Assembly (NCBI GenBank): GCA_018896215.1
Contig: JAHINB010000003.1
Span: 3,776-67,775, forward strand
Reading direction: 5' to 3'
DNA length: 64,000 bases
From: Patescibacteria group bacterium
GTDB taxonomy: Bacteria; Patescibacteriota; WWE3; 0-14-0-20-40-13
This document shows, in pieces, positions 4,308 through 60,962 of the stretch. Within the stretch, counting starts at the first letter, position 1. Each line of letters begins with the position of its first letter. The translations under genes were made by a program, and so were the position numbers. The notes beneath the pieces are model-generated. The model made no database searches, was not told where the DNA came from, and was given only the letters and a program-made list of their open reading frames with translations.

Positions 4308-4339
4308 TAGGGTTGAACCCCATTTAGGGTTCAACCCTA
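4308..4339. repeat. Perfect 13-bp-arm palindrome TAGGGTTGAACCC-CATTTA-GGGTTCAACCCTA (REP-like, GGGT-N4-ACCC pattern)
   Basis: Read directly from the sequence. It lies between the AAA ATPase and the methyltransferase, with no flanking T-run. Confidence 0.5.
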
Positions 4340-4384: not shown

Positions 4385-5002
4385 ATGAATCCAGCAGATA
4401 AAGAAAAACAGACGATAGATTTTTATGATAGAAAAGCCGAAGAGTGGGCAAACGCTCATTCTGGCTACGAAAAGATTTCTTGGTGGATAGAAGAAATGCA
4501 GATATTTCATAACCTTCTGCCTACTGGTAAAATCCTGGAAATTGGGGCTGGAACAGGGAGAGACGCTTCAAATCTAGTAGATTTAGGTTACGACTACACA
4601 GGAACAGACGCTTCGTTTGGTCTTCTGGAAATTGCGAAAAAAAGAAACCCGCAAGTAAACTTTAAATTGGTAGGGGTATGCGAATTGGACTTTCCGAAAC
4701 ACGAATTTGATGGGTTTTAGACTGTAGCAACCCTTTTGCATATACCTAAAAACACTATCGATAAGGCGTTGCAGATTATCAGAACCCAAATTAAGCCTAA
4801 TGGGATAGGTTTTATATCATTGAAGGCTGGAGCAGATGAAAGGGAGGATTCGGAAACAGGAAGGTGGTTTTCTTATTACTCACTAAAGGAGTTTAAAAAA
4901 CTACTCGAAAAAAACGGATTTGAGGTGATAAAGCAAAAGACACGCAAGGGGGAAAGAGATTGGTGGCTGTGTTATTGGGTTAAGACAAAAGCCAATGTTT
5001 AG
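4385..5002 (+). pseudogene. Class I SAM-dependent methyltransferase interrupted by an in-frame TAG at 4718-4720
   Basis: The N-part carries motif I (LEIGAGTGRD). The C-part (...TVATLLHIPKN...) continues in the same frame right after the TAG, and both halves align as one methyltransferase fold. Confidence 0.6.
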
Positions 5003-5030
5003 CTTAATTTGAGTGTGATAGAATAATGTC

Positions 5031-5606
5031 ATGGTTGCATTTTCTGCATTTTTGGAATCTCCAAAAAATGTTAGTTTTGAATCTCAAGAAAAGGGGGAAT
5101 TGATTATCTTTTTGCTAAGAAGGCATTGGATTACTAATGTTCCTTGGATACTCTTTTCTTTTGTGTTACTCTCCTTTCCACTTTTGTATCGGGTAATTTT
5201 ATCTAATGACAGCTTTTTTTCTTTGCTACCTTCCAAGTACGCTCTAGTTGCTGGACTAATTTGGTATTTGTTTACCTTTTTATTTATTTTAGAAAACTAT
5301 TTAATTTGGTATTTTAATGTTTACATTTTGACGGATAAACGGGTCATCGACATGGACTTTTACGGCATAATCCACAAAAAAGTTTCCGAAACACCACTTC
5401 GCAACATAGAAGATTCTACCTACTTTGTAAGTGGTATATTCCCAACACTTTTTGATTTTGGAAATATTAAAATTCAGACTGCAGCCGAATCCCCCGAGTT
5501 TGAATTTGAACAGGTTCCAAACCCTGCCCAAGTTCACGATAGAATAAACGATTTAATAACAGATATTCATAAAACAAGAGGGAGGACAAAAAGTGGAAGC
5601 AAATAA
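5031..5606 (+). CDS. Membrane protein with a bacterial PH (bPH_2, YdbS/YdbT-like) domain
   Basis: Two N-terminal TM helices followed by ...YILTDKRVIDMDFYGIIHKKVSETPLRNIEDS...FGNIKIQTA..., typical of bPH_2. Confidence 0.6.
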   Translation: MVAFSAFLESPKNVSFESQEKGELIIFLLRRHWITNVPWILFSFVLLSFPLLYRVILSNDSFFSLLPSKYALVAGLIWYLFTFLFILENYLIWYFNVYILTDKRVIDMDFYGIIHKKVSETPLRNIEDSTYFVSGIFPTLFDFGNIKIQTAAESPEFEFEQVPNPAQVHDRINDLITDIHKTRGRTKSGSK

Positions 5607-5862
5607 CCCCTTGGATCTTTCAATCCAAATACCTTTTCCTAATATCAATATCTCTGTGAGTGTGTGGTATGTAATTGAGCTCCTTCTAATTTTGGCATTT
5701 ATAATTTACATTAGCTTTGCGGCATTGGTGGTAAAACAGGTGTATATTATGGACGAGGCGTTGTCTACCGGTGGGGTATCATCTTACCTAAAAACTTTTG
5801 CTTGGTTACACTTTGTGGCGTCAATAATGGTTTTTGTATTTGTACTGTTTTATTTATTGTAA
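5593..5862 (+). CDS. Small membrane protein, hypothetical
   Basis: 89-aa ORF with two hydrophobic helices, overlapping the upstream gene by 14 nt. Confidence 0.35.
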   Translation: MEANNPLDLSIQIPFPNINISVSVWYVIELLLILAFIIYISFAALVVKQVYIMDEALSTGGVSSYLKTFAWLHFVASIMVFVFVLFYLL

Positions 5863-7509: not shown

Positions 7510-7532
7510 CGATTTTTTTGGTATAATAACCT

Positions 7533-7988
7533 TTGCCGATGCCTGTAATTGCTGAAAACAAAAAGGCCTACTTTGAATATTTTATCGAAAAGGAATTTGA
7601 AGCGGGTTTAAAGCTGTTAGGGCACGAGGTTAAAGCTTGCAGATTGCAAGGAGCGTCCCTTGTGGGATCGTTCGTTCGGGTGGTAAAAAATGAAGCGTTT
7701 GTAATAAATGTTCTAATTCCAGTGTATAAAAAGGCTGGTGGGTCAGTAGTAGGATTGTACGACCCAAAAAGATCTCGCAAGCTCCTTTTGCATAAAGGAG
7801 AAATAAATGCCATAATTGGCGCACAAAGTCGCAAGGGATATGCGATTGTACCTTTAAAACTTTATACGGAAGGTGATTTGATAAAAATTAAGATTGGGAT
7901 TGGGCGGGGCAAAAAGTTGTATGATAAGAGGGAAGAGTTAAAGAAAAGACAGATTCAAAGAGAGATGATGAGAGAAGCTAAAGAATAG
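7533..7988 (+). CDS. smpB: SsrA-binding protein SmpB
   Basis: AENKKAYFEY...KLLGHEVK...PKRSRKLLLHK...; this is canonical SmpB, and it sits next to the tmRNA. Confidence 0.9.
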   Translation: MPMPVIAENKKAYFEYFIEKEFEAGLKLLGHEVKACRLQGASLVGSFVRVVKNEAFVINVLIPVYKKAGGSVVGLYDPKRSRKLLLHKGEINAIIGAQSRKGYAIVPLKLYTEGDLIKIKIGIGRGKKLYDKREELKKRQIQREMMREAKE

Positions 7989-8018
7989 CGAGATTATAAT
8001 TAGCCCATCCTTCGTTCC

Positions 8019-8041
8019 GACATGTGGTCGGAACTTCGGAG
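8019..8041 (+). terminator. Hairpin GTTCCGAC-ATGTG-GTCGGAAC after smpB (no strong T-run)
   Basis: Inverted repeat read directly from the sequence. Confidence 0.3.
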
Positions 8042-8088
8042 GGCATTGTAAATTCTAAGTTCGCTGTTGCTCTCTAAGACTTTACAAT

Positions 8089-8486
8089 GGGGATGATGGG
8101 AATCGATTGGTAAACAAGGCGTAAAAATCAAGCCGAAAATGTTGGGTATTTTCGTTAAGATCCCAACAAAACACAAATGCTGAAGAAGCAAGTTTCGTTC
8201 CTGTAGAAGAGTACGCTTTGGCGTACGCCTAAACAGGTGTTTGGCGCCGTTTTCTTTTAGCGGACGCGCCAGGCACAACCAGAGCTAAAAGAGGTTAGAA
8301 TAGTTATGCAGGTTATCTATATTTTAATCTGATTGGGTTTCCAATCGAACTTATAACCCGGTGAGGGGGTTTTTCTTGTTCTTTTACCCCCAAAATCGCG
8401 ACTTCATTAAAAGAATAAACAAGCTTGTAAAAATTTTTGCGATATTGTTTGTCAACACGGGGGTTCAACTCCCCCCATCTCCACCA
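8089..8486 (+). ncRNA. ssrA: tmRNA (ssrA)
   Basis: The 5' GGGGATG pairs with the 3' CATCTCC-ACCA. The 3' tRNA-like T-arm is GGGGGTTCAACTCCCCC followed by ...CCACCA. An internal tag-like frame ends ...EEYALAYA-TAA, resembling the canonical ...ENYALAA. The gene sits immediately downstream of smpB. Confidence 0.8.
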
Positions 8487-8624
8487 TGCTTCACTAAAGT
8501 TTCGCATGGCGCAGCCACATATAAGGAATTTTCCAAATCGGCGAAGCCATGAGAAAATTTAGGCTGAAGCATGAGTGCCCTTCGTAGCTCCGAACTAAGC
8601 GAGGAGCGTAGTAGGGCTATTGTT

Positions 8625-8900
8625 ATGTCCATGTACTATGTATATATAATTCAGAGTGTATCCAACCCAAATAAAACTTATGTTGGATATACAGAGGATC
8701 TCAAAAAGAGAATCTTTGAACATAATATTGGAGCGAACAAATCTACAGAAAATTTTAAACCGTGGAAGCTTCTTTCCTACATAGCCCTTACAGATAAATA
8801 TCAAGCGTTACAATTAGAGAAGTATCTAAAACAAGGATCTGGAAAAGCTTTTATGAACAAGCATCTAATAACTATAAGCTCCCCCCATGAACAACTATAA
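8625..8900 (+). CDS. GIY-YIG nuclease family protein (small stand-alone)
   Basis: MYYVYIIQS...YVGYTEDLKKRIFEHN is a GIY-YIG motif. The ORF-track start at 8571 is probably too far upstream; the likely start is MSMYYVY. Confidence 0.65.
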   Translation: MSMYYVYIIQSVSNPNKTYVGYTEDLKKRIFEHNIGANKSTENFKPWKLLSYIALTDKYQALQLEKYLKQGSGKAFMNKHLITISSPHEQL

Positions 8901-9657
8901 GATACCACATCACAAACACCCTTATATAAAGCGGATATTTGGCATTGTTAATAAGTGGTTAACAGTCATATACAACTGGATTTTGGACTTTGTTTTTCCT
9001 AAAAAATGCGTCGGTTGCAAAATCGACGGTTCGTTTTTATGTTCCGCTTGCGAAGGAAAAATCGAGTATCTAACAACCCAAGTTTGTCTTGTTTGTCAAA
9101 AGCCCTCCGTTAAAGGTTTTACTCATCCAAATTGCGCCACAATTTACACCCCTGAACGCCTTTACAGCCCTTTTGTTTATAAGGGAGTTATCAGAAATGC
9201 TATTTTGGAAACTAAGTACTCCGGGGCTTTTGCGGTTTTGGATCCGCTTTTAAATATCTTTGTTGAGGCAGTTTTGGAATCAGCGCTTGAAATTGGGGAT
9301 AAAGCAATAGTCATCCCCATTCCGTTGCATAGATCCCGTTATACCAAGAGGGGTTTTAATCAGGCAACATATATTGCGAGCAGAATTGCTGACGCCTTTA
9401 ATGTTTCCTGCCATACCAATATTTTACAAAGAATTGTTAATACTAAATCGCAAGTTGGTTTGGATAAAGAAGCAAGACGGGAGAATGTTAAAAATGCCTT
9501 TGGTATCAACCCCAAAACTTCCTCGATTCTCAAAGATTCTGATATTGTTTTGGTGGATGATGTGGGAACCTCGGGAGCAACCATGCTTTCCGCCTCAAAA
9601 GCTCTAAAACGAGCCGGTTGCAGGTATATTTATTGCCTTTGCCTGGCTAAAGATTAG
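8887..9657 (+). CDS. comFC: ComF family protein (phosphoribosyltransferase domain, competence protein ComFC-like)
   Basis: N-terminal Cys-rich zinc ribbon (CVGCK...CSACEG...CLVCQ...HPNC) and the PRTase motif VLVDDVGTSGATM. Confidence 0.8.
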   Translation: MNNYKIPHHKHPYIKRIFGIVNKWLTVIYNWILDFVFPKKCVGCKIDGSFLCSACEGKIEYLTTQVCLVCQKPSVKGFTHPNCATIYTPERLYSPFVYKGVIRNAILETKYSGAFAVLDPLLNIFVEAVLESALEIGDKAIVIPIPLHRSRYTKRGFNQATYIASRIADAFNVSCHTNILQRIVNTKSQVGLDKEARRENVKNAFGINPKTSSILKDSDIVLVDDVGTSGATMLSASKALKRAGCRYIYCLCLAKD

Positions 9658-9659
9658 CT

Positions 9660-10589
9660 CTAATCCTTTTTAGCAACCTTCTTTGTTCCCCTAAAAAAGA
9701 GTACTTTAACAATAAGGACAATAGGAAGCCACATTAAAGCAAATGCGGCAACCCAGATAAAGGCAACTGCCACAAAGTACAGCACATCTAGGATTTTATT
9801 TCCAGCTTCTTTGAGCGTTTCCAAAAGATCCGGTCTTTGTGGTGTTTGACTCGGATTAAAGTACTTTTCGGAATTTGCCACTACCAGGCTTAGTGTGGCA
9901 TAACTTGTTTTGGTTTCTACTGTGTTTACTTGAGATGTGGCGGAAGCAATTTGAGATTCCAGTCTTTGTATTTCGTATTCAATTTGTTTCTTTTCGATAT
10001 CGGTTCTGGCTGCCAAGAGCTCTAACTCCTTTTTGGTCTTTTCCTCGTTAAGTCTGGTTAACTCATCGCTAGCCTGTTTTAGGGCTCCTGTTTCGTCAAG
10101 GGAGTTTATGTTTTCATAATAGGTTTTTTTGATGTCCGTCTTAACCCGCATGTTGGCCTCGTCAAATTTTTCCACAGGAACTTTTACGGTTAGCGAAGCC
10201 ACAATTGTTTTATCGGAAGTATTAAGATTGGAAGATAATATCCTTCCGCCAATGCTCAAAAAATAGCTGGTTAGGTTGGAGGTGTACTTTTCCACACTAT
10301 CAACCACAACGCTAAAGCTAGAATATTTTTCGTAGACTCGGTTAACTACATCTAACGCGGCATCAGGAGTTATGTATGGGGGCATAATGGAGGTGGTGGG
10401 TCTTTCGATCATCATTTTAGCCCCACTCTCTTGCGAATATCCCGTTGAACCACTATTTACAGCTTGGATTAATGAAGGCGCTCCTTTAATGGCCACCACA
10501 GCAGTGTTCTTTACAGTAACAAAAATAAAAGCCGGAATGGCGGTAATAACAGCAAGTATTAGAACAATAACGAGAGTTTTTTTATTCAT
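9660..10589 (-). CDS. Membrane protein with an N-terminal TM, an extracellular coiled coil and C-terminal TM helices (DUF4349-like), hypothetical
   Basis: Hydrophobic N- and C-termini and a heptad-rich middle region (LNEEKTKKELELLAARTDIEKKQIEYEIQRLESQI). It converges on comF. Confidence 0.5.
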   Translation of the reverse strand: MNKKTLVIVLILAVITAIPAFIFVTVKNTAVVAIKGAPSLIQAVNSGSTGYSQESGAKMMIERPTTSIMPPYITPDAALDVVNRVYEKYSSFSVVVDSVEKYTSNLTSYFLSIGGRILSSNLNTSDKTIVASLTVKVPVEKFDEANMRVKTDIKKTYYENINSLDETGALKQASDELTRLNEEKTKKELELLAARTDIEKKQIEYEIQRLESQIASATSQVNTVETKTSYATLSLVVANSEKYFNPSQTPQRPDLLETLKEAGNKILDVLYFVAVAFIWVAAFALMWLPIVLIVKVLFFRGTKKVAKKD

Positions 10590-10719: not shown

Positions 10720-11481
10720 TTAAGAGAATTTCTTTTTTATGTAGTCGGTAATATAGATAAATAATTTAGCAAGATTTTCTCTCTCATTTATTCTAATAAA
10801 GGGTTTTAAGTCCTGAATAAATTCCTTTTCGTTAAAGGCTGTAAGTCTCTCAATAAACTCCTTTTTATTGAATTTCTCTCTATAGTAGGCAAGCTTTTTG
10901 TCAATTAGGTTAAAATCAATTTTTCCACCTAGTTCTATTAAAACCCATAAATCATAAAGATCCCGCATTTTTTTGCGAGTTAAGATTGCCCTAACCTTCT
11001 CAGCAATAATTTCATTAATGCTTAACGAGTTAATGTAATTTTTAACGATTATGGGATAGACAGTTTCCATAATTCTATTTTGTGGCTCGATTACGCTTTC
11101 TCTAAAGGAAAAATCCAGTTTTACATATACTGGTGTTTTAAATCCCAAGATAGTTGTGGTCAAAAGATATGACTTACCAACCAAAGCTTTTTTGGCTTTG
11201 CATTTAATGGGGTATTTACTCTCTACATCAGAAAAAACTTTTAAAATCTCGCTTTCAAAAACGGGGAGATCTAAATTTGCAGTAAAATCTAAATCTTCCG
11301 AGAAACGACTTCCTCCATATAACAACCTAATTGCAGTACCACCTTTAAAATAGATATCTCTAGAAAATTTATATGAGTAAAGTTCGTTTAAGAAAAGTAT
11401 TTGAATAAACTCCCGAGCAATAACACTTTCGTCAATTTTGTTTTTACTTGCCAACTCTTTTATTTGATCTAGAGAAATCAT
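10720..11481 (-). CDS. Nucleotidyltransferase AbiEii/AbiGii toxin family (type IV TA toxin, DUF1814)
   Basis: FKGGTAIRLLYGGSRFSEDLDFT is the hallmark NTase motif of AbiEii. Confidence 0.8.
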   Translation of the reverse strand: MISLDQIKELASKNKIDESVIAREFIQILFLNELYSYKFSRDIYFKGGTAIRLLYGGSRFSEDLDFTANLDLPVFESEILKVFSDVESKYPIKCKAKKALVGKSYLLTTTILGFKTPVYVKLDFSFRESVIEPQNRIMETVYPIIVKNYINSLSINEIIAEKVRAILTRKKMRDLYDLWVLIELGGKIDFNLIDKKLAYYREKFNKKEFIERLTAFNEKEFIQDLKPFIRINERENLAKLFIYITDYIKKKFS

Positions 11482-12068
11482 AAATATTTATCAATTAACA
11501 CCGCGATTCCACTTTTGCTATTAGCAGAGACTAAAGGTAAATACAATCTGATCTTTTCTTTTGATAATTGCGATAAGTCCATCTCACTAAGGTAATTTTC
11601 TGTCCTAAAAGACTTGGTAACGAAGTAAAAATAGTCAAATAAAGCTTTTTCGGGGTAGGCAATTAAGAAGTTGTTTTTTGATTCGTAACCAGTTAAAAGC
11701 TCCTTTTTTATTTGTGAATAACTAAATATTTTATCGTTAATGTTTTTAACACAAGTTTTCTTTGTTGTGATAGCAGTAATTTCAAAAGGGAATTGGCTTA
11801 AGATTCCGTAGTAATTTAAAGCCGATTCCAAGGAAATATAGGATGGATTATACAAGTAGCTACTAGTAGCAAAATCCGAGGGGGCGTTTTGTTTTAAATA
11901 ATATTTTCCTCTTTCTAATTGGACAAACAGACCAGAGCCGATAAGACTACTGATAGTATTCTCCAGAGATCTCGCATTCTCAATTTTAAGAATAACAGCA
12001 ATATCTCTAGTATTAAAAAAGGTTTTTTTTGTTTCCAAGAGTTTATCGATCTGCAAGTACGCTTCCAT
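11478..12068 (-). CDS. AbiEi-like antitoxin/transcriptional regulator (type IV TA)
   Basis: Lies upstream of the AbiEii gene with a 4-nt ATGA overlap. An N-terminal wHTH-like region is typical of AbiEi. Confidence 0.55.
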   Translation of the reverse strand: MEAYLQIDKLLETKKTFFNTRDIAVILKIENARSLENTISSLIGSGLFVQLERGKYYLKQNAPSDFATSSYLYNPSYISLESALNYYGILSQFPFEITAITTKKTCVKNINDKIFSYSQIKKELLTGYESKNNFLIAYPEKALFDYFYFVTKSFRTENYLSEMDLSQLSKEKIRLYLPLVSANSKSGIAVLIDKYL

Positions 12069-16447: not shown

Positions 16448-16483
16448 TGGCACTAATATAGTACGAGTGATAATTATTGTCAA
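16448..16483 (-). promoter_or_regulatory. Sigma70-type promoter TTGACA-N17-TATATT for hrcA, overlapping a degenerate CIRCE-like inverted repeat
   Basis: On the minus strand, TTGACA is at 16483-16478 and TATATT at 16460-16455 with a 17-nt spacer. On the plus strand 16448-16474 reads CTGGCACTA-N9-GAGTGATAA against the CIRCE consensus TTAGCACTC-N9-GAGTGCTAA (6/9 and 8/9). Confidence 0.45.
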
Positions 16484-16509
16484 CAGGAATTTTAGGGTAC
16501 AATTGCGAT

Positions 16510-17301
16510 ATGTTCTTAGAGCCAAAAAAGTCCCTGGGGCAAAATTTTTTAAAGTCGCCAAAAGTCTTAAATGACTTTATTCAGGCGTGTGATTTATCGA
16601 AAAACGATGTGGTACTGGAAGTTGGAGCAGGAACTGGGGCAGTGACTAGAGAGCTTGCCGAGGTTGCAGGCAAGGTAATTGCTGTTGAGTTTGATCGAGA
16701 TCTTGTGGAAGCACTTAAGGAATCATTAAAAGATTATTCTAATGTGGAGATCGTTAACGATGATATTTTACAAATTTTCCCTACTTCGCTCGCCGTTGGT
16801 GAGCTACACAGGGCAGGCAATTTAAAGATAGTGGGGTCGATTCCATATAGTATTACTTCGCCATTGATTGGCAAAATTTATGAACTTAAACAAAAGCCAA
16901 CCTTAATCTGTTTAATTGTGCAGTGGGAAGTGGCAAAAAAGATTTGCGCTAAACCGCCCAACGCCAGTTATTTGTCCAATCTTGTGGCAACATTTGGAGA
17001 AGCAAAAATTATAAGAAAAATCCCACCGGGAGCGTTTTGCCCAGCACCACGAGTTGACTCCGCGATTCTACGAATCGTCACGCATAATAAATATCCTGAT
17101 ATCAGGACAAAAGAATTCTCTCAGTTTCTCCATAAGGGGTTTAAACATCCTCGGAAAAAAATCAAGCAGGTTTTCACGCTAGAAGAACTGTTAAAGGTTG
17201 GGATAGATCCAAGCCTCCGCCCCGAAAATCTTTCTTTGCTGAACTGGCTAAACCTTTTTAATTTGGGAGTATCCCATTTGGGATACTCCCATATGAGATA
17301 A
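16510..17301 (+). CDS. rsmA: 16S rRNA (adenine1518/1519-N6)-dimethyltransferase RsmA/KsgA
   Basis: SLGQNFL and VLEVGAGTGAVT motifs. An ATG at 16510 is preferred over the TTG at 16477. Confidence 0.9.
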   Translation: MFLEPKKSLGQNFLKSPKVLNDFIQACDLSKNDVVLEVGAGTGAVTRELAEVAGKVIAVEFDRDLVEALKESLKDYSNVEIVNDDILQIFPTSLAVGELHRAGNLKIVGSIPYSITSPLIGKIYELKQKPTLICLIVQWEVAKKICAKPPNASYLSNLVATFGEAKIIRKIPPGAFCPAPRVDSAILRIVTHNKYPDIRTKEFSQFLHKGFKHPRKKIKQVFTLEELLKVGIDPSLRPENLSLLNWLNLFNLGVSHLGYSHMR

Positions 17302-17364
17302 GGAAATATGAGGGGATCATGCGCGTTTCGTATTTGGTACAATGAATCTAGGAATCAAAAAACT

Positions 17365-18318
17365 ATGAATTTAGAAAATTTACCAGAACATTTGGTGCAG
17401 TCCCCAATTTGGGGAAAATTTAAGACCCAAATGGGAACGCCAGCGTACACCGCGGGCGGTGTGCAATTTACCCTCCACAAATTACCTCTTTTGCCTTACT
17501 ACTTGGCATATGCTCCCAAGATCAATCTCAAGAATATTAACTATGAGGAAGTGGGTAAAGTTGCCGAATCAAAAAATGCGGTAGCCGTGCGTTTTGATGC
17601 ACCTAATGTTGTTTTGGCTGATGATACAGCAAAAAGTCGGGTACTACCCGATTCGGGTAGTACCCGATATAATGTTGTACCTGCGCCAAAAGATACTTTT
17701 GCTAAGTACAATATTCTTTTAGATTTAACTCCAAACGAAGAAACGCTTTTTAAAAATCTTAAATCCAAAACCCGTTACAACATCAGACTTGCCCAAAAAA
17801 ATGGCGTTGTAGTCAAGAAATCGAACGACATAAATACATTTTTAGAGCTCAATCGCAAAACCGCAAAAAGGCAGGGTTTTTTTGTCCACGCAGATTCTTA
17901 TTACAAAACTATGTTCGAGATCTTGCAAAAGGAAGGTTTGGCCTATCTATTTATTGCTTATTTAAATAACGAGCCACTTGTTGCTTGGATTCTAATCTGC
18001 TATCAAGGGGTTTTGTATTATCCTTACGGAGCTTCTTCCGAAAAACACAAAGAGGTTATGGCGTCCAACCTAATGATGTGGGAGGCAATAAAATTTGGAA
18101 AAGAAAAAGGTTGTAAACTGTTTGATATGTGGGGGGCAACTAACGATGAAAAAGACCCCTGGTGGGGGTTTACGAGATTTAAGTTGGGATATGGGGGAGA
18201 GTTGGTTAAATACATGGACTCCTTCGATCTCGTTATTAATAAACCGATATATAGACTATTTAATGGGGTGTATAGATTATTTTGGTTTTTTCTCAATTTA
18301 AAAAAGCTATGGATCTAA
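17365..18318 (+). CDS. FemAB-family aminoacyltransferase (peptidoglycan interpeptide bridge formation), copy 1
   Basis: FemAB-like layout: ...SKTRYNIRLAQKNGV..., acceptor-type fold. It contains the 31-nt REP-like palindrome at 17637-17667 within the reading frame. Confidence 0.7.
   Translation: MNLENLPEHLVQSPIWGKFKTQMGTPAYTAGGVQFTLHKLPLLPYYLAYAPKINLKNINYEEVGKVAESKNAVAVRFDAPNVVLADDTAKSRVLPDSGSTRYNVVPAPKDTFAKYNILLDLTPNEETLFKNLKSKTRYNIRLAQKNGVVVKKSNDINTFLELNRKTAKRQGFFVHADSYYKTMFEILQKEGLAYLFIAYLNNEPLVAWILICYQGVLYYPYGASSEKHKEVMASNLMMWEAIKFGKEKGCKLFDMWGATNDEKDPWWGFTRFKLGYGGELVKYMDSFDLVINKPIYRLFNGVYRLFWFFLNLKKLWI
17637..17667. repeat. 31-nt perfect palindrome TCGGGTACTACCCGA-T-TCGGGTAGTACCCGA inside the FemAB CDS (REP-like)
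   Basis: Read directly from the sequence. A copy identical over 30 of 31 nt occurs at 46435-46465 in an intergenic region. Confidence 0.6.
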
Positions 18319-19208
18319 GGCAAACAAAACACTGGGGAGAGTATTTAAAAGCTTTAGGCTGGGACTCTTTAGAAACAAAAGGCAATAATTTGAGGATAAA
18401 AAAGCTAGGAGTATTGGGGAGTATTATAAAAATCCAAAGACCGCGGGAGCTAAACGAAAAAATTCTCCAACAAATTGCCACAATTGCCCAAAAAGAAAGG
18501 GCAATTATTGTTAAACTAGAGCCTAATTTGGGGTTTAATGACGAAAGATTGCTTGCAAAGTATGGTTATAAAAAAGATACCTGGCCCACAGTTCCTGCCC
18601 ACACTATCATTTTAGACTTGAGTGACAACATTCCCAACACTTACACAAAAGACGCCCGATATTCTATTAGAAAAGCCGAAAAAGCGGGCATTCTCACCAA
18701 GTTTTTTAAAACCACAAACCCCCAAGCTCAAAAAGAATTTTATAAACTCTATAAAGAATCCGCCAAGGGAAAGTTTTTTGTGTCCTCATTTGAAAAGGAT
18801 TTTATTCCCAAATGCCAGGCGCTGGATAAGAGCTCATTTATAGCGTTAGCCTCGTGTGACAACAAGAATAAGGGATTATCCCAAATTTGGGATAATCCCT
18901 ATTCAGGGGCGTTTGTTTGTGTGGTTGGTGATACGGCACACTATCTGCACGCAGGTACCACTCAAGAGGGTAAGGACACAGGCGCCCCTTACAAGTTAAT
19001 CTTGGAGATTTGTCAAAAACTAAAAAAAGATAAAGTTAAGTATTTGGACTTGGAAGGAATTTATGATCCCAGATATCCTAAATTTACCAAAGGTTGGCAG
19101 GGGTTTACCCATTTTAAAAGCCAATTCGGTGGGCGCATCATGGAATTTCCGCCGTCATATACAAAGTACCGTGGCTTGCTTAAACTTCTTGCTAGTTTTA
19201 GCTATTAA
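18309..19208 (+). CDS. FemAB-family aminoacyltransferase, copy 2
   Basis: Paralogous to the upstream gene (...DARYSIRKAEKAG...). Its ATG overlaps the upstream stop. Confidence 0.65.
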   Translation: MDLRQTKHWGEYLKALGWDSLETKGNNLRIKKLGVLGSIIKIQRPRELNEKILQQIATIAQKERAIIVKLEPNLGFNDERLLAKYGYKKDTWPTVPAHTIILDLSDNIPNTYTKDARYSIRKAEKAGILTKFFKTTNPQAQKEFYKLYKESAKGKFFVSSFEKDFIPKCQALDKSSFIALASCDNKNKGLSQIWDNPYSGAFVCVVGDTAHYLHAGTTQEGKDTGAPYKLILEICQKLKKDKVKYLDLEGIYDPRYPKFTKGWQGFTHFKSQFGGRIMEFPPSYTKYRGLLKLLASFSY

Positions 19209-23411: not shown

Positions 23412-23465
23412 CTCAAATCGCGCGATTTGAGACGCAAAAGCCGCGGTTTTTACCGCGGTTTTTGG
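23412..23465. terminator. Bidirectional terminator region between the pilin array (+) and the serine hydrolase gene (-)
   Basis: Perfect 20-nt palindrome CTCAAATCGCGCGATTTGAG at 23412-23431, then CCGCGG-TTTTTA-CCGCGG-TTTTT at 23441-23463. T/A runs flank it on both strands. Confidence 0.6.
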
Positions 23466-31824: not shown

Positions 31825-32198
31825 ATAAGTTTGTAACGCTTTCGCTTCGCGAAACATTTTAGTATTTTTTCTCTAATCTTGTTATAGAAACTAGTTGACT
31901 TGGCTAGTTTAATAATTTAATGTAAGGTTGTTAGGATTACATTACAATATCCCTCGCCGAGGGAAAAAGCAGATGCTTAACTATAAATTGGCAAAATTAA
32001 TGACCACCTGTTTTTGGGTTTTTACCGAGGGTGGTTTTTTAGTCTCTAGCACTTTAAAAACTGAATATCTCATTAATTAAGCGGTAGCAAAATGCTCATC
32101 TCTTTTGAGTTGGCTATTTTGCTATCGCTTAAGCGTGGCTCCACAATTACTTTGTGGAAAGACAATTCCACTTTCAGTTCAGTTTTAGGAGGTTTTCC

Positions 32199-33287
32199 AT
32201 GTCTCGCTCAAAGATCGCTGTGTTGTTCGGCTTATCCCTTCTCGTGCTCATGAGTTCGTGCGCGAGTCCTGCCACCCCACAAGTGGTGGAAAAGATCGTT
32301 GAGAAGGTGGTCGTGGTCACTGCACAACCAGTTCCTGTAATCAAGCTCGTGCATCTCAATGTCCCGCTAGGGTGGGTAAACAATGACGAGTTCGTGGCGC
32401 TACAGGTGGCTCAAGCCAAGGGGTTCTATGCCGAGGCAGGCCTCGATGTCAACTTGATCTCTGGCGGTGGCTCCACCGGGTTCGATCCTCTGGTTGCCAT
32501 CATGGGTTTCGATGACAGTATTCGGATCGGTGTGCCGGCGGCAATGAGCTTGGTCGTCAAGGCCAAGTCGGAGGGTATTGATGTGGTAGCAGTGGCTGCC
32601 CTGACTCAAGAAGAGCCGGGCGGTTTCATTGCTCTTACCAAGTACGCCCCCCAGGCCACCGGGCTCTGTGACTTTAAGGGCAAGGTCGTCTCCATGCAAA
32701 CGGAGGCGACATGGTATGTAGATGCACTCGGAAAGCAATGCGTCACCGGTGCCCTAGTTGCTGGCGAGGACTTTACCGTCGTGCCGGCTGGTTGGACACC
32801 TGATTGCCTTCTGGCCACCGGCGCCAACCGTTGCGATTTTTATTGTGGTTGGGCGACCAACCAGGTGTTCGGTCTCGAGCAACAGGGGTTGAAGCTCGGA
32901 GTGGACTTCCAGTTCTTTCTGGCGAGCAAGTATCTGCCGTTTCACTATGCTGATGTCATCGTGGTGAACGGCGCCTGGGCCAGGAAAAACCCGGAGATCG
33001 TTCGTGGCTTCGTTCAAGCCTCGATGAAAGGGTTGCAATATACCCTCGATCATCCTGACGAAGCGGTACAGATTTCTGGTGCGGTACCGGGGATGGATCT
33101 GGCTCACGCCACCTGGCGTATCCCGATTCAGAACAGACTCGTTACCAACGAAGACACCGCCAAATTCGGTGTTGGGTACATCGATGTGGGCAAGGTTCAG
33201 GATATGATCAACCTTCTCGCCGAGAAGGACCAGATCAAGACCGAGTTCGATGCCAGCACCGTCGTCGACAGCTCGTATCTGAAGTAG
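32199..33287 (+). CDS. ABC transporter substrate-binding lipoprotein, NMT1/THI5-like (NitT/TauT family); part of the GC-rich island
   Basis: Lipobox LLVLMSSC and an NMT1-like periplasmic binding fold. Its GC-rich codon usage is unlike the flanking genes. Confidence 0.7.
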   Translation: MSRSKIAVLFGLSLLVLMSSCASPATPQVVEKIVEKVVVVTAQPVPVIKLVHLNVPLGWVNNDEFVALQVAQAKGFYAEAGLDVNLISGGGSTGFDPLVAIMGFDDSIRIGVPAAMSLVVKAKSEGIDVVAVAALTQEEPGGFIALTKYAPQATGLCDFKGKVVSMQTEATWYVDALGKQCVTGALVAGEDFTVVPAGWTPDCLLATGANRCDFYCGWATNQVFGLEQQGLKLGVDFQFFLASKYLPFHYADVIVVNGAWARKNPEIVRGFVQASMKGLQYTLDHPDEAVQISGAVPGMDLAHATWRIPIQNRLVTNEDTAKFGVGYIDVGKVQDMINLLAEKDQIKTEFDASTVVDSSYLK

Positions 33288-33320
33288 TTCTATGTTCTAC
33301 TATGAAATATGGAGGGTGAA

Positions 33321-34094
33321 ATGAACGCACTCGGGATTCAAGATCTGACCGTACGGTTCGGTAATCTAATTGCTCTTTCGCAAGTATCGTTGACAGTGCA
33401 AGAGCATGAGATCGTCGCCCTTATCGGTCCATCTGGATGCGGAAAGTCCACCCTCTTGCGTGCAACAGTCGGCATTGTGCCTGGCATGGTGCCGACTGCT
33501 CACTTAGAAGGCGGGATTGACCTCTTTGGAAAATCGCCGATCGAACGCCACAACGGCGAGGTCGATATGGTTTTCCAAGAGTCTTGTCTCCTGCCCTGGA
33601 GAACAACCCAAGCCAATATCAGGTTGGGTTTGGAAATTCTTGGCAGGAATGCAAATAACGGCACTTTACCGACCATCCTGGAAGCCATTGGGCTGACAGA
33701 CTTTGCCAATTGTAAACCCCGCGCGCTATCAGGTGGTATGCGCCAACGCGCCAGCTTGGCCACATCACTTGTGACTCACCCAAAACTCTTACTCATGGAT
33801 GAGCCTTTTGCCAACCTCGACTCCTTAACCAGAGAACAGATGTGGCAACTCGTAGAGCATCTACATTTGGATGATAAAATCCAAGCCGCATTGTTGGTAA
33901 CCCACTCCATTGAAGAGGCTGTTGCTTTGGCTGATCGGGTACTGGTAATGAGTGAGCGACCCGGTCAAATCATCGGTGAAGTGGTTGTAAGACTTCCTCG
34001 TCCTCGGATCACTCCAGAGGGGTTGTTGGTCGAAGGCTTTGGGGCGGTAGCCAACCAAGTCCGTCGTTTCATCCGCCACGGAGGTGAAGTATGA
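33321..34094 (+). CDS. ABC transporter ATP-binding protein (NitT/TauT family); GC-rich island
   Basis: GPSGCGKSTLLR, LSGGMRQRASLA and LLLMDEPFANLD motifs. SD GGAGGG precedes the ATG at 33321. Confidence 0.85.
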   Translation: MNALGIQDLTVRFGNLIALSQVSLTVQEHEIVALIGPSGCGKSTLLRATVGIVPGMVPTAHLEGGIDLFGKSPIERHNGEVDMVFQESCLLPWRTTQANIRLGLEILGRNANNGTLPTILEAIGLTDFANCKPRALSGGMRQRASLATSLVTHPKLLLMDEPFANLDSLTREQMWQLVEHLHLDDKIQAALLVTHSIEEAVALADRVLVMSERPGQIIGEVVVRLPRPRITPEGLLVEGFGAVANQVRRFIRHGGEV

Positions 34095-34834
34095 AAAGGT
34101 CACAATGGCTGGTACCGCTGGTGACCCTCACCTTCCTGCTTGTGGCCTGCGAAGTGTCACTGACGCTGGCGCGAGTATCAACCTTCATTTTCCCCAAGCC
34201 AACGCTGATCGTCAAAGCGTTGGTTGAAAACTGGGGTTGGATCGTTGCCAACTTGCAAGTCACAGCCATGGAAGCAGTTGTCGGTTTCGCCCTTAGTATT
34301 GTGCTTGGGATAACACTGTCGACGGTTTGTCTGTTTGTCCCGCAAGCCGAGAACCTCGTCGTGCCTTTCGCCATCGCCATTCGCAATGTGCCGTTTGTTG
34401 CTTTGGCGCCGATTCTCTTCATGACGATGGGATATGGTCCCTGGCCCAAGATCATCATCGTTATGATCGTTAGTTTCTTTCCAATCATGACCAATCTTAC
34501 GGCTGGATTTGCAAGCGCAGAAGTCGCTCAAAAGGAAAGATTCTTTGTATGGCGAGCGACCCGTTGGCAGATGTTTGTCAAGCTTCAACTGCCTTCGGCT
34601 ATCCCGTATTTTGTGGCAGGGTTGGAAATCGCGGTTAGTAACATCATCATTGCCGCGATCGTTGGCGAATTGATGGGAACGACCAAGGGCTTAGGATTGG
34701 TCATTATTATGGCCGTGTCCCAGTACCGGTTTCCTTTGCTGATGGCAACCGTAGTGGTTACGACAGCACTGTCAATTGTGACTACATGGTTGCTACGCCA
34801 GGCAATGCGAATTGCCTTTTCACCTTGGAATTAA
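34091..34834 (+). CDS. ABC transporter permease (BPD_transp_1, NitT/TauT family); GC-rich island
   Basis: Six TM helices and an EAA-like loop region. Its start overlaps the ATPase stop. Confidence 0.8.
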   Translation: MKRSQWLVPLVTLTFLLVACEVSLTLARVSTFIFPKPTLIVKALVENWGWIVANLQVTAMEAVVGFALSIVLGITLSTVCLFVPQAENLVVPFAIAIRNVPFVALAPILFMTMGYGPWPKIIIVMIVSFFPIMTNLTAGFASAEVAQKERFFVWRATRWQMFVKLQLPSAIPYFVAGLEIAVSNIIIAAIVGELMGTTKGLGLVIIMAVSQYRFPLLMATVVVTTALSIVTTWLLRQAMRIAFSPWN

Positions 34835-34846
34835 GGAGAGTACACC

Positions 34847-35764
34847 GTGGACTACCAATCAATCCTGGATGTTTGTAGAAGTCAGTTTGAGGCTGATGCG
34901 GCGCGAACCGCATCTGTCGGAGGTTCCGGTACCCTTGCACTGGACAAGCGTGGAGGCATCGGTTTTCCCGAGGCCCTCACTTGTGTTTGCAACGATCGGA
35001 TTCTTCGATTCGAAGAGGTGTCAACGCCATTTGGGGATGTTCCGATGGTCAAACTCTTCGCAGTCAACGGCCAACCGGTCGTGCGGATTCCGATGCACGG
35101 TTGGCGATTGCCAGTGGCGACGCTCGAACACACTCAAGCAACCTTTTGGCTACTGGATCAGCTTGGCGTTCATCAAGTGCTCGTTGACGCTAGCGTTGGT
35201 GGGATCGGAGCCAAACCCATGGATGTCGTCATCCCCGATGATGTCTACAACCACGAGCCTGCCAAGATCGCTATGGCAAAGTTGGCCTTTGAATTGGGAA
35301 GAGACCCCTGGGTTCGGATGTATCAACCCTTCTGTCCCCGCTTAAGAAGCAAGTTGGTTACCTCAGTTCGTCAGGTTAAGACGGAAGGTCATGAACTTGG
35401 CGATCTCGTCGACGGCGGGGTCTACTGGACCACGCCTCTTGGTCCGTTTGAAACGGCTTTCGAGATAGCCACCTTCAAGACTCTTGGGGCTACCATCGTT
35501 GGCCAATCATCGGGGCAGGAAGCCCTAGCCGCTCGTATTCTTGGAATGTGTTTGGCTGTGGCCAACCCGGTTGTTAACTTTGCCGAAGGGCTCAACAACG
35601 CAGGCTGGTCTGGGGACAAAGGCATGGATTCCATGTACGAAGCCATCTCTATGCCCATGGCCCTCATGGTTTACTACACTCTTGAGCGAATCGTCAGCCA
35701 GACCCGCACCTGCGACTGCCAAACCATTGCTCACAGCCCTGATTTAGCTGGGCTGACATCGTAA
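34847..35764 (+). CDS. PNP/MTAP-family nucleoside phosphorylase-like protein; GC-rich island
   Basis: The C-terminal ...GATIVGQSSGQEALAARILGMCLAVANPVVNFAEG... parallels the MTAP/PNP family-1 active-site region (G..VG.T.VPE..LA.E.G.C...A.V.N.A). GTG start with an AAGGAG SD. Confidence 0.5.
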   Translation: MDYQSILDVCRSQFEADAARTASVGGSGTLALDKRGGIGFPEALTCVCNDRILRFEEVSTPFGDVPMVKLFAVNGQPVVRIPMHGWRLPVATLEHTQATFWLLDQLGVHQVLVDASVGGIGAKPMDVVIPDDVYNHEPAKIAMAKLAFELGRDPWVRMYQPFCPRLRSKLVTSVRQVKTEGHELGDLVDGGVYWTTPLGPFETAFEIATFKTLGATIVGQSSGQEALAARILGMCLAVANPVVNFAEGLNNAGWSGDKGMDSMYEAISMPMALMVYYTLERIVSQTRTCDCQTIAHSPDLAGLTS

Positions 35765-35783
35765 TTAGGATTAGGAGGAACCT

Positions 35784-36314
35784 GTGTCCAACATTCAAGT
35801 CCTAGCTACCGAGAGGCAAATCAGGCAAGCCGTGAGAAGGATTGCTCGAGAAGTCTCTCGGCGGTACCAGGAGGAGTCGATTCTTCTGGTTGGAGTTCTC
35901 ACCGGCGCTTTCGTTTTCATGGCGGATCTGGCGAGGGAGCTCTACCGTATGGGGATGACAGATGTCGAAATCGAGTTCATCGACATATCTTCGTATAGTG
36001 GTACGGAGTCTGGGCAGATCCGTTTCGATCGTGACCTGACCGTTCCCATCAGCGGTCGGCATGTGGTGATTGTGGAGGATATCATCGATACCGGGGCAAC
36101 GCTGGCGTTCCTGTTGAAGCTCCTCGAAGTCAGGGAACCAGCCAGTTTGATTGTAGTTGCCCTGTTCAACAAGGTCACCCGGCGGGTTGAAACCCTCCCG
36201 TCAGAACGGATCATAACGGGAATTGACCTGCCTAACAAGTTCGTGGTCGGCTACGGTCTTGACCGTAACGGAAAGTTTCGGCATCTCCCTTTTGTGGGGA
36301 TTGTCGCAAGTTGA
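35784..36314 (+). CDS. hpt: Hypoxanthine(-guanine) phosphoribosyltransferase; GC-rich island
   Basis: VVIVEDIIDTGATLAFLL PRPP motif and an HPRT-like length. GTG start with an AGGAGGAA SD. Confidence 0.85.
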   Translation: MSNIQVLATERQIRQAVRRIAREVSRRYQEESILLVGVLTGAFVFMADLARELYRMGMTDVEIEFIDISSYSGTESGQIRFDRDLTVPISGRHVVIVEDIIDTGATLAFLLKLLEVREPASLIVVALFNKVTRRVETLPSERIITGIDLPNKFVVGYGLDRNGKFRHLPFVGIVAS

Positions 36315-36325
36315 GGAGAGAGACC

Positions 36326-36378
36326 AACGACCAGTTGCTTGTGGATGCTTTCACAGACAACTGGTCGTTATTTTTTTA
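36326..36378 (+). terminator. Rho-independent terminator ending the GC-rich island operon
   Basis: AACGACCAGTTG - 20-nt loop - CAACTGGTCGTT, followed by ATTTTTTTAT. Confidence 0.75.
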
Positions 36379-42175: not shown

Positions 42176-42484
42176 ATGCACTATATCTATCTGGTGCGTT
42201 GTGTGGATAATTCCTTGTACTGTGGGCAAACCACGGATTTGTCTCGTCGTGTCAATGAGCATAATTTTGATGGTAAAAAATCTGCCAAGTACACCAAAGG
42301 CAGAAGACCAGTAATTCTCGTCTATTCTGAAGAATTTGCCACATTCTCTGAAGCCTTAAAACGGGAATTAAAAATTAAACGCCTTCCAAAAGCAAAAAAG
42401 GAGGTCTTGGTTAATTCGGGATACTCCCATGAAAAACGCAATTATTTTATTGGAATTGTCCCAAATGGGACAGACCCGATTTAG
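42176..42484 (+). CDS. GIY-YIG nuclease family protein (second small stand-alone copy)
   Basis: IYLVRCVDNSLYCGQTTDLSRRVNEHN is a GIY-YIG motif. Confidence 0.65.
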   Translation: MHYIYLVRCVDNSLYCGQTTDLSRRVNEHNFDGKKSAKYTKGRRPVILVYSEEFATFSEALKRELKIKRLPKAKKEVLVNSGYSHEKRNYFIGIVPNGTDPI

Positions 42485-46367: not shown

Positions 46368-46434
46368 GCTACAACTACAACATTAAAACCGCACTTCAAA
46401 TAATGCTTTAATGGCAAGATATTATCGGGTACTA

Positions 46435-46465
46435 CCCGATTCGGGTAGTACCCGCATTCCGACAA
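46435..46465. repeat. REP-like palindrome TCGGGTACTACCCGA-T-TCGGGTAGTACCCG(C); second copy of the element at 17637
   Basis: 30/31 identical to 17637-17667. It lies in the intergenic leader of the NTase-deaminase operon. Confidence 0.6.
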
Positions 46466-58658: not shown

Positions 58659-58707
58659 ATTCGGGTTCGTCCCATTCGGGTTCGTCCCATTTGGGACGAA
58701 CCCGAAT
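58659..58707. repeat. REP element: direct repeat ATTCGGGTTCGTCCC x2 followed by the inverted partner TTTGGGACGAACCCGAAT (hairpin)
   Basis: Read directly from the sequence, immediately downstream of the RAYT gene. Confidence 0.7.
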
Positions 58708-58713
58708 TAGGAA

Positions 58714-59343
58714 CTAAATAAATATTCCTTGTTTTGGATTATATTCTATTTCTTTAGCGTAAGAATCTATCTTACTCCAGTTAGTAGATTGAACTAAAGT
58801 TGGATGTAGGTTTAACCAGGGTAAATCTCGGTTATTTATGTAATTTTGTAACGAAGAGTACTTATATTCAGACGACCCACCAACAATCCCCGACTTGTAT
58901 GGGTTTAAGTGAATATATCTTCCTACATGGATAAGTTGAGCTTCTGTAATTATTGGAACTGCTCTGTAACACCCTTGGATTAAAGGTCCCTCCCTTGAAT
59001 ATTTCTCATTAAAGAACCCCGCATACACGGAGAGAATTCTTTTGGAAAATTCTTTTATTCCATAGTCTACTAAATTCTTACATAAAATGTGAAAGTGGTT
59101 GGGCATTAGGCAATATGCATAGAGCTCAAGTTGTCCAAAAACGCTGTTGGCTGGAATTTCTACTTCTTTCTTAGCAATTATTCTGCTTTCTTTAAAATCT
59201 TTAGTTAGGTATTTCTTAAGAAGGTAGATAAAGAATATGTAATCTTCGTGATCCAAAAACATCTCACACCTGTTAATTCCACGACCGTAAATGTGGAAAG
59301 TAATATCTGGCTTGTGGGTTTTACAGCGATTTTTATATGGCAT
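58714..59343 (-). CDS. REP-associated tyrosine transposase (RAYT; IS200/IS605-like HUH Y1 transposase)
   Basis: HUH motif YCLMPNHFHIL and C-terminal RYIHLNPYKSGIV (compare Y..NP..AGLV of IS200/RAYT). REP hairpins flank it on both sides. Confidence 0.75.
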   Translation of the reverse strand: MPYKNRCKTHKPDITFHIYGRGINRCEMFLDHEDYIFFIYLLKKYLTKDFKESRIIAKKEVEIPANSVFGQLELYAYCLMPNHFHILCKNLVDYGIKEFSKRILSVYAGFFNEKYSREGPLIQGCYRAVPIITEAQLIHVGRYIHLNPYKSGIVGGSSEYKYSSLQNYINNRDLPWLNLHPTLVQSTNWSKIDSYAKEIEYNPKQGIFI

Positions 59344-59348
59344 TTTTC

Positions 59349-59380
59349 ATTCGGGTTCGTCCCATTTGGGACGAACCCGA
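59349..59380. repeat. REP element hairpin ATTCGGGTTCGTCCCA-TT-TGGGACGAACCCGA
   Basis: Read directly from the sequence, 5 nt upstream of the RAYT start codon. Confidence 0.7.
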
Positions 59381-59392
59381 TTTAGAAAAAGT

Positions 59393-59965: not shown

Positions 59966-59996
59966 TGGAAAATTTTAGCACAATACGATTAAATTA

Positions 59997-60052
59997 TTAG
60001 GGAGAGTCCCTAAAAACGGGATCAGAGGTATTTAAGGGACTCTCCCTAAAAA
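59997..60052. repeat. Inverted repeat TTAGGGAGAGTCCCTAAAAA ... TTTAAGGGACTCTCCCTAAAAA (long imperfect hairpin)
   Basis: Read directly from the sequence, in the intergenic region upstream of tlyA. No T-run follows the stem. Confidence 0.4.
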
Positions 60053-60136
60053 TCAATAAATACAATTTGTATAATTGGATAAATTAGAATAATTGGAAGT
60101 TGTGATGGTCGTGTGAGTCTAAAAACAGGGTTTTTT

Positions 60137-60847: not shown

Positions 60848-60906
60848 ATTTTAAATACTACCACCGCTTTTTAGTCAATGCAATAATTGCAATTTGGATG
60901 ACTTTT

Positions 60907-60957
60907 TCGGGTGAGACCCCGATACAAAAAGCAAATACCCTTTGGGGTCTCACCCGA
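60907..60957. repeat. REP-like hairpin TCGGGTGAGACCCC - 23-nt loop - GGGGTCTCACCCGA
   Basis: 14-bp perfect arms that share the TCGGGT...ACCCGA ends with the other REP-like elements. It lies just downstream of secF. Confidence 0.5.
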
Positions 60958-60962
60958 TAGAA

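Follow-up and report, generated by a model that had tools for sequence, protein, structure and literature searches.

A RAYT-like Y1 nuclease gene flanked by cognate palindromic doublets in a Patescibacteria genome: a candidate REP/REPIN-like system

The locus described here lies near one end of a 64-kb stretch of contig JAHINB010000003.1 from a bacterium of the Patescibacteria (WWE3), and this stretch as a whole is called the window. The GC content of the window is about 37-40%, and the locus contains, in this order, secF, a psbP-like gene, tlyA, a gene for a Y1 nuclease of the HUH type (the Y1 gene) and recJ. The Y1 gene (open reading frame, ORF, 58714..59343, minus strand) encodes a protein of 209 amino acids that is similar to the REP-associated tyrosine transposases (RAYTs), where REP stands for repetitive extragenic palindrome. 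An earlier note, made from the sequence alone, had pointed to the motif YCLMPNHFHIL and to a C-terminal region (RYIHLNPYKSGIV) of this protein, both of which are present in the translation. It had described the locus as a classic REP-RAYT arrangement that accounts for the palindromes scattered through the window.

The hairpin TTCGGGTTCGTCCCA-TT-TGGGACGAACCCGAA is found on both sides of the Y1 gene, as the earlier note had described; it lies 5-6 nt from the gene ends. On the downstream (recJ) side, sequence and folding reveal three clustered 15-nt units (58659..58707), of which two are direct and the third is inverted; the Y1 stop codon lies 6 nt before the cluster, and the start codon of recJ follows 3 nt after it. 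The half-site TTCGGGTTCGTCCCA is exact at 58660, at 58675 and, on the minus strand, at 58692. The upstream (tlyA) side carries a single inverted pair, ATTCGGGTTCGTCCCA-TT-TGGGACGAACCCGATT (59349..59382), which is separated by 10 nt from the stop codon of tlyA and by 5 nt from the start codon of the Y1 gene. Doublets at this locus lie 3-5 nt from the next start codon. On the tlyA side the half-site is found at 59350 and, with one mismatch, on the minus strand at 59367. As single-stranded DNA (ssDNA) the flanking sites form perfect stems of 13-16 bp, with folding free energies of -18 to -23 kcal/mol and z values of -6.4 to -7.6. When up to three mismatches are allowed, the window contains 7 matches to TTCGGGTTCGTCCCA against 1.35 expected, a number that was reached in none of 100 shuffles. 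We call two inverted units that fold into one hairpin a doublet and name the doublet types by their central five nucleotides (the core); the type flanking the Y1 gene is TTCGT/ACGAA.

The Y1 protein contains the residues expected of an HUH nuclease, i.e. H83 and H85 (NHFH) and the catalytic Y143 (YIHLNP), and it has S164 in the tail. An alignment of 44 homologs shows no variation at H83, H85, Y143, N147 (part of the Y-x3-NP motif) or S164. The Pfam profile Y1_Tnp (PF01797), which the earlier note had proposed as a check, is matched marginally, with 23.5 bits against a gathering cut-off of 23, and most of the homologs carry this domain. The homolog search found 781 relatives, which are mostly unnamed or labelled 'transposase' and belong for the most part to Patescibacteria, WWE3 and Saccharibacteria. 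When viral contigs were scanned with the family profile, one distant relative (25% identity), without doublets, was found. A PDB search with the single sequence gave nothing relevant and a profile search was needed: the profile of the 44-relative alignment matched the E. coli TnpA-REP structure (4ER8) with E = 2.4e-6 and ISDra2 TnpA with E = 6e-3. The AlphaFold (AF2) model of the protein has a pLDDT (predicted local distance difference test) value of 92.6, and Foldseek ranked 4er8_A first (E = 1.5e-5, template modelling score, TM, 0.66 relative to the target), followed by the ISDra2, IS608 and IS200 transposases; the best 22 matches are exclusively TnpA-REP, ISDra2, IS608 or IS200 structures. 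In the model the C-terminal tail consists of three short helices, and no Pfam match to a helix-turn-helix (HTH)-like tail domain (Bac_DnaA_C, HTH_23, HTH_28) was found in the protein at E <= 1. The profile matches and the predicted fold support the view that the product is a Y1 HUH enzyme closer to RAYT/TnpA-REP proteins than to the IS200 transposases.

The chromosomal position of the gene is conserved. The order SecD-SecF-(x)-FtsJ/TlyA-Y1-RecJ is common to orthologs at 100%, 87% and 55% identity, and two other homologs (P0010 and P0015) have a different fixed site in common, rplT|Y1|pheS. The earlier note had proposed a check for a second RAYT copy; the Y1 gene is present once in the window, with neither a second copy nor remnants. 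Where two Y1 paralogs occur on the same contig they are divergent (67% identity for P0010/P0012, 40% for the pair L049a/b), and the members of each pair have different flanking repeats. Fixed position, low copy number and divergent paralogs are the properties that set RAYT-type genes apart from IS200 elements (PMC5581495; PMC6006769), copies of an insertion sequence (IS) being about 99% identical within a genome, unlike RAYT-type genes (PMC6006769). Judged by these comparisons, the Y1 gene appears to be a vertically inherited, host-like gene and not an IS. Contig Ga0114931_10007938 and its ENA counterpart (L042/L040) carry two 67%-identical Y1 paralogs about 8 kb apart, each with its own distinct doublets, one of the TTGGT and the other of the ACCGT type. 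This pair mirrors the 'one RAYT, one REP family' rule of Pseudomonas.

Doublets were also found at the Y1 genes of the relatives, where their sequences are lineage-specific. The 87% ortholog (L004/L005) is flanked on both sides by TTCGGG-ATAGT-CCCA/TGGG-ACTAT-CCCGAA, with an extra unit per side. Compared with the window, both of its flanks have switched in concert (TTCGT/ACGAA in the window, ATAGT/ACTAT in the ortholog): in all six units two core base pairs are replaced and the replacements are fully compensated, the frame around the core is unchanged, and so is the adjoining AGAGT doublet. The 55% ortholog has TAGGG-AGTCT-CCCTA/AGGG-AGACT-CCCTA on the upstream side only. Among the more distant relatives, the Y1 gene is bracketed by AGGG-TTGGT-CCCTA doublets in L040, by TGAGG-ACCGT-CCTCA doublets with a common 18-nt leader in L042, by AGG-ACAGT-CCT...AGG-ATTAT-CCT flanks in L044, by AAGG-ATTGT-CCTT doublets in L046 and by GGG-TGACA-CCC doublets in L050; L049a has AGG-TTTAA-CCT units and L049b an unrelated 32-nt repeat. 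In a third strain (L053) the gene was called with 182 amino acids on account of a later start codon, and the DNA is structured as in the window.

When the 162 genes of the Y1 loci were ranked by the longest repeat common to both flanks, Y1 genes took the lead with 40, 33, 32, 28, 20 and 15 nt, the mean of the background being 9.4 nt. Only one other gene reached 14 nt or more, and it lies directly next to a Y1 gene. Nine of the ten family genes have a flank-to-flank repeat of at least 13 nt. Cognate bracketing is thus a conserved, gene-specific and lineage-specific property of the Y1 family, and a chance 'terminator pair' would therefore not account for the flanks. The flanking repeat is usually a doublet, and 25 distinct doublet types from all loci fit RGG-W-NNN-W-CCY plus its reverse complement, with A or T at positions 4 and 8 in every case and no constraint on the central triplet. 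This frame is common to Y1-flanking and dispersed doublets, across proteins that are only 35-40% identical. A conserved GTCC/GGAC apex was considered as a further common feature (present in the Y1-flanking doublets of 6 of 7 close relatives and in 2 of 7 types that do not flank Y1), but the trend is weak and it was dropped as evidence.

The window contains a whole family of such structures. GGG-N5-CCC inverted pairs occur at nine sites, namely 4308, 17261, 17637, 18871, 46426, both Y1 flanks, 59993 and 60905, whereas 200 dinucleotide shuffles gave none, and a degenerate pair at 42415 is additional to these. The palindromes that the earlier note had seen scattered through the window are therefore real; the spacers between the two units measure 0-7 nt or about 25 nt, and the long-spacer form is REPIN-like. 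Two REPIN-like doublets with spacers of about 25 nt lie close to the Y1 gene, one with the core AGAGT/ACTCT in the gap between the psbP-like gene and tlyA (59993..60053) and one with the core TGAGA/TCTCA in the gap between secF and the psbP-like gene (60905..60959). Because every gap from secF through recJ has a doublet, four of the approximately ten window sites fall within 2.3 kb of the Y1 gene. The inverted-pair scan also found intergenic doublets with the core TTGAA/TTCAA at 4308..4339 and with the core TACTA/TAGTA at 46426..46454. The degenerate unit pair (GGGATACTCCC ... GGGACAGACCC, 42415..42480) lies where the 3' ends of two convergent genes, GIY-YIG and PAP2, overlap. Most doublets begin 4-17 nt past a stop codon, in co-directional gene runs. 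A terminator scan called no doublet, and none has a T tail.

Three of the doublets are intragenic and leave the reading frames unbroken. The AGTAT/ATACT doublet (17261..17294) is located at the 3' end of an RsmA/KsgA-like ORF (16477..17301), to which it contributes the final 13 codons together with the stop codon. The other two lie in frame within tandem FemAB-family ORFs: a TACTA/TAGTA doublet (17637..17667), the same type as at 46426, encodes SRVLPDSGSTRY in ORF 17308..18318, and an ATTAT/ATAAT doublet (18871..18900) encodes GLSQIWDNPY in ORF 18282..19208. The hairpin-encoded peptide of the FemX-like protein is retained in a 79% ortholog. Since it sits in a loop of variable length, the FemX alignment contains no clean pair of filled and empty sites.

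Several comparisons point to dispersal and turnover of the doublets. In L050 the cognate doublet is present at both Y1 flanks and at three other intergenic sites, i.e. at five sites in 20.6 kb, and in L002 a second cognate doublet lies 6.5 kb away in the gap between deoC and pgk. In the same region of L050, just upstream of the Y1 gene, the ORFs of the ribonucleotide reductase large subunit form four consecutive pieces (1836-9904), and doublets of the cognate Y1 type at 3800 and 5565 occupy two of the gaps between them. L049 has the core variants TTTAA, TTCAA and TTCGA within 6 kb, and a doublet (AGGTTAAACCT/AGGTTTAACCT, 10452-10479) within the Y1 ORF itself, the frame of which is intact; this case is similar to the REP insertions reported within subclass 2.4 tnpA-REP genes (PMC6006769). 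The TACTA type is found at two window sites (17639, 46427) and on the unrelated metagenome contig L038, and a window-type hairpin with one mismatch was found in L039, where no Y1 gene lies within 2.7 kb. A search of metagenome contigs for the conserved frame, in which the core was left free, returned 3 contigs only (including L038 and L039), too few for statistics. The AGAGT long-spacer element, which in the window occupies the psbP|tlyA gap, lies in the secF-side gap of L004 with the same spacer and two substitutions, a relocation between strains; at the tlyA-proximal gap L004 has only a solo unit, and L002 has neither the AGAGT element nor the solo unit. Finally, a 14.3-kb comparison of the window with a sister assembly (L001) gives 99.27% identity and a single indel, and this indel is one 15-nt unit of the downstream Y1 cluster (window 58675-58689, L001 4276-4301), which L001 lacks. 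The triple-unit form occurs also in the third strain L053 and in contig L038.

It is useful to compare the Y1 system with the known families. According to the published classification, Y-x3-NP is the signature of class 2, the RAYT branch, while the IS200 transposases (subclass 1.1) have Y-x3-Q (PMC6006769), and subclass 2.1 is marked by NH[YF]H, Y[IV]HLNP and an SS tail motif (PMC6006769). The Y1 protein fits class 2 by its YIHLNP motif and subclass 2.1 by NHFH, YIHLNP and the invariant S164 in 'YSS'. As it was placed by the published motif table and not by the subclass hidden Markov models (HMMs), we call it 'subclass 2.1-like'. Subclass 2.1 (Quentin et al. 2018, PMC6006769) corresponds to the Group 1 RAYTs (Bertels et al. 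2017, PMC5581495) and to the TIRYTs, the tyrosine transposases associated with terminal inverted repeats (Di Nocera et al. 2013, PMC3733652). For TIRYT genes terminal inverted repeats, some self-complementary, were reported, but no REPs (PMC3733652), and many of them are without any repeat family (Di Nocera et al., PMC3733652). The likeness to this group extends to proteins longer than IS200 TnpA, low copy number, divergent paralogs, wide taxonomic spread, and gene-flanking repeats, which may be self-complementary over their whole length and in some cases make up families of moderate abundance. The flanks of the Y1 gene, being palindromic, can be read as direct and as inverted repeats alike. 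The sister units GGGAGAG, GGGTGAG, GGGACAG, GGGTGAC and GGGAGAC resemble GGGGWSAS, the published motif that is often found in the inverted repeats of this group, but the unit that flanks the Y1 gene in the window (GGGACGAA/GGGTTCGT) departs from it. Further differences are the length of 209 amino acids against a subclass median of 238, the lack of a Pfam-detected C-terminal HTH-like domain (subgroup 2.1.2 is described as heterogeneous in its C-terminal HTH region) and the dispersal of doublets here and in relatives; Patescibacteria were not covered by the published survey.

The closest profile and fold match is E. coli TnpA-REP (4ER8), which is associated with REPs and bacterial interspersed mosaic elements (BIMEs) and, like the Pseudomonas RAYT with its REPINs, represents the canonical REPtrons. 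As in these systems, a single-copy, vertically inherited gene stands between cognate palindromes, the units are paired in inverted orientation into REPIN/BIME-like hairpins in addition to singlets and clusters, and the repeats lie mostly just 3' of ORFs with occasional in-frame intragenic copies. In contrast to the canonical systems, the units are only 11-15 nt long, the stems are perfect and bulge-free, and many low-copy core variants take the place of one family in tens to hundreds of copies. The in-frame palindromes in surface loops or termini of undisrupted genes are also reminiscent of the Rickettsia palindromic elements and of intragenic REPs, although they measure about 30 nt, as opposed to 100-150 nt for the Rickettsia elements. 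Full-text literature searches did not find REP/RAYT-type systems described in the candidate phyla radiation (CPR)/Patescibacteria.

Taken together, the reading that we favour, with a probability of roughly 0.62, is that the Y1 gene encodes a domesticated class-2, subclass-2.1-like Y1 nuclease which forms a REPtron/TIRtron-like unit with its cognate palindromic doublets, and that the scattered doublets belong to the same REP/REPIN-like family. Its parts differ in strength. We have little doubt about the protein class, the fixed position and the cognate bracketing; that the Y1 enzyme mobilises the doublets may be true or false with about equal chance. By analogy with E. coli TnpA-REP and with the TnpA of IS608, the enzyme would bind a hairpin, made of two inverted 11-15-nt units of the RGG-W-NNN-W-CCY form and extruded on ssDNA, e.g. 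at a replication fork. It would cut beside the hairpin by means of Tyr143 and a metal held by His83/His85, and a 5'-phosphotyrosyl intermediate would be followed by rejoining. The outcome would be that doublets are maintained, homogenised, copied or deleted while the enzyme's own gene is not moved, and the scattered doublets would be sister elements made or maintained by the Y1 enzyme or by its paralogs or ancestors. Both the catalysis on the hairpins and the role of the enzyme in dispersal are thus modelled on these two relatives. As the feature shared by the scattered palindromes is architecture and not sequence, the Y1 enzyme is a plausible but unproven cause of them, and the earlier note's explanation holds only in this reduced form.

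Several observations weigh against the favoured reading. The score of the protein with the NCBIfam equivalog model REP_Tyr_transpos (NF047646) is 44.3 bits, which is below the cut-off of 80. The foot of the flanking units reads (A)TTCGGG / CCCGAA(T), without the 5' GT[AG]G of canonical REPs, and REPs have not been reported for subclass 2.1 (PMC6006769). The central 5 nt of the scattered window doublets differ from the Y1-flanking type. Beyond the five Y1-flank sites, no exact or one-mismatch copy of TTCGGGTTCGTCCCA occurs in the 64-kb window, and the TTCGT-type doublet is restricted to the gene flanks in about 79 kb of the genome lineage (the window, 4.9 kb upstream on the contig and 10 kb past the other end in a 99%-identical strain), which contains 11 doublet sites of at least 9 core types. 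In four relatives (L040, L042, L044 and L046) the cognate repeat is confined to the Y1 gene within 10-20 kb. Moreover, direct-orientation hairpins at both gene ends resemble the left and right end (LE/RE) layout of IS200, which alone does not discriminate between the families. The system resembles a REP/RAYT system, but by the HMM cut-off and the GTAG foot it is not a canonical RAYT, of which a high copy number of the cognate REP would also be expected. The earlier description as classic REP-RAYT thus stands as far as the RAYT-like protein and the family-wide cognate bracketing are concerned, and has to be given up with respect to the equivalog score, the foot and the subclass, the motifs being those of subclass 2.1/TIRYT. 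The same note had held that a hairpin occurring only at this locus would simply be a terminator pair; within about 79 kb the TTCGT type is so confined, but the terminator pair fails as an explanation, given the missing T tail, the gene-specific bracketing and the intragenic copies.

The same evidence can be set against three other explanations. The 720-bp (approximately) hairpin-gene-hairpin segment could be an active or recently active IS200-like IS, in which case the hairpins would represent its subterminal left and right ends, with no relation to the scattered palindromes. The size of about 0.7 kb, the direct-orientation hairpin on each side and the HUH/Y1 transposase fold are indeed as in IS608 and ISDra2 (IS200/IS605), and databases call such proteins 'transposase'. 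We nevertheless consider this very improbable, as the protein has Y-x3-NP and not Y-x3-Q, and 209 amino acids with a C-terminal tail instead of about 150; the site is constant down to orthologs of 55% identity; there is no second window copy, and paralogs are 40-67% identical where IS copies would be about 99% identical (PMC6006769); TnpA-REP is the top structural and profile match, and no tnpB is present. Little more likely, and still improbable in our judgement, is that the doublets are host elements acting at the RNA level, i.e. terminators without a U tract, stabilisers of mRNA 3' ends or translation attenuators, next to which the Y1 gene is placed incidentally. Their usual position shortly after stop codons in co-directional runs and the occupation of all secF-recJ gaps would suit such a role, and REPs act in this way in other bacteria (PMC3733652). 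On the other hand, the two Y1-flanking gaps are the only ones with the same core, and this holds independently for 9 of the 10 family genes with lineage-specific sequences; one Y1 neighbour apart, no gene has matched flanks; the core switched in concert at both flanks; several relatives have doublets solely at the Y1 gene within 10-20 kb; and a missing T tail, a distance of 3-5 nt from the next start codon and in-frame copies within genes do not fit. An RNA role as a secondary function is compatible with the favoured reading.

A better case, although we still find it doubtful, can be made for a self-contained TIRtron, the enzyme of which acts only on its own flanks (autoregulation, local inversion or excision), the other doublets having arisen independently of Y1, by template switching or slippage on GC-clamped palindromes or through another enzyme. 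The cognate core is confined to the gene flanks in the genome sample and in the four relatives named above, core types are many, with one or two copies of each, simple slippage might explain the 15-nt indel, and TIRYTs without a repeat family are common (PMC3733652). What speaks against it is the constant RGG-W-NNN-W-CCY frame, which flanking and dispersed doublets share even though the proteins are only 35-40% identical, together with the cognate type being clearly dispersed in both L050 and L002, and the concentration of window sites within 2.3 kb of the Y1 gene.

Going beyond the favoured reading, we speculate that Y1 nucleases throughout the Patescibacteria might recognise a constant frame (the RGG-W ... 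W-CCY clamps of a perfect hairpin) and tolerate any central triplet, which would give rise to low-copy, 'barcoded' mini-elements that swap in concert at the nuclease flanks and insert in frame into genes (FemX-like, RsmA). This generalisation is tentative and may well be wrong; if true, it would describe a REPIN-type replicator with a free-running core, and a source of variation in protein loops and operon junctions of streamlined genomes. The underlying principle of such systems is already established; this one is unusual in its short units and free core, in the concerted switching of cores at a locus that is itself fixed, and in its in-frame copies. REPs and RAYTs have been studied almost exclusively in Proteobacteria, and subclass 2.1/Group 1, the largest RAYT branch, reportedly lacks REPs. 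Here, members of a subclass-2.1-like clade of the CPR have consistent cognate bracketing, and doublets that are dispersed in some genomes. The 11-nt unit, the perfect stem, the many cores that occur naturally and the orthologous loci with switched cores make for a compact test system that might be of interest for experimental studies. There are consequences for annotation as well: genes labelled 'transposase' in reduced genomes, which are thought to be poor in mobile DNA, behave as stable host genes, and the doublets may be mistaken for terminators and can silently extend or interrupt ORFs.

Database searches with the doublets gave little. Rfam has no credible family for them at gathering or permissive thresholds. 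Among 185,579 reference genomes, a collection that does not include the source genome, the exact hairpin pair matched only unrelated high-GC genomes: an Armatimonadia metagenome-assembled genome (MAG), CAZZDO01 (L007, L018, L025, L036), a Chloroflexi MAG (L006, L012) and Actinocrinis MAGs (L021, L023, L028). These matches were rejected as relatives; they are canonical GTAG-tagged REP dimers, e.g. CGCGTAGGC-GGGTTCGTCCCCGAACCCGC, with a coincidental core, and no family Y1 gene lies within their 8-kb loci.

A few other features of the window deserve mention. A T-tailed hairpin with a GC stem (23435-23464, CAAAAGCCGCGGT-tttt-ACCGCGGTTTTTG), with A/T runs on both sides and located between convergent genes, looks like a bidirectional intrinsic terminator, and the genome therefore has ordinary terminators that are distinct from the doublets. 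Two small stand-alone GIY-YIG nuclease ORFs are present at approximately 8631-8900 and at 42176-42484, and the latter ends inside the degenerate doublet 42415-42480, overlapping the 3' end of the convergent PAP2 gene. Positions 32077-36369 form a block of about 52% GC within the 37-40% GC genome that lies between the inverted repeats 32077-32132 and 36326-36369 and codes for an NMT1/THI5-like binding protein, an ABC ATPase, a permease, a PNP_UDP phosphorylase and a phosphoribosyltransferase; because of the high GC content and the bracketing repeats, it is probably a horizontally acquired salvage/transport island. The segments 8089-8486 and 10720-12068 contain a tmRNA gene with the tag peptide AEEASFVPVEEYALAYA and an AbiEii-type toxin gene that, together with its upstream partner ORF, looks like a type IV toxin-antitoxin module.

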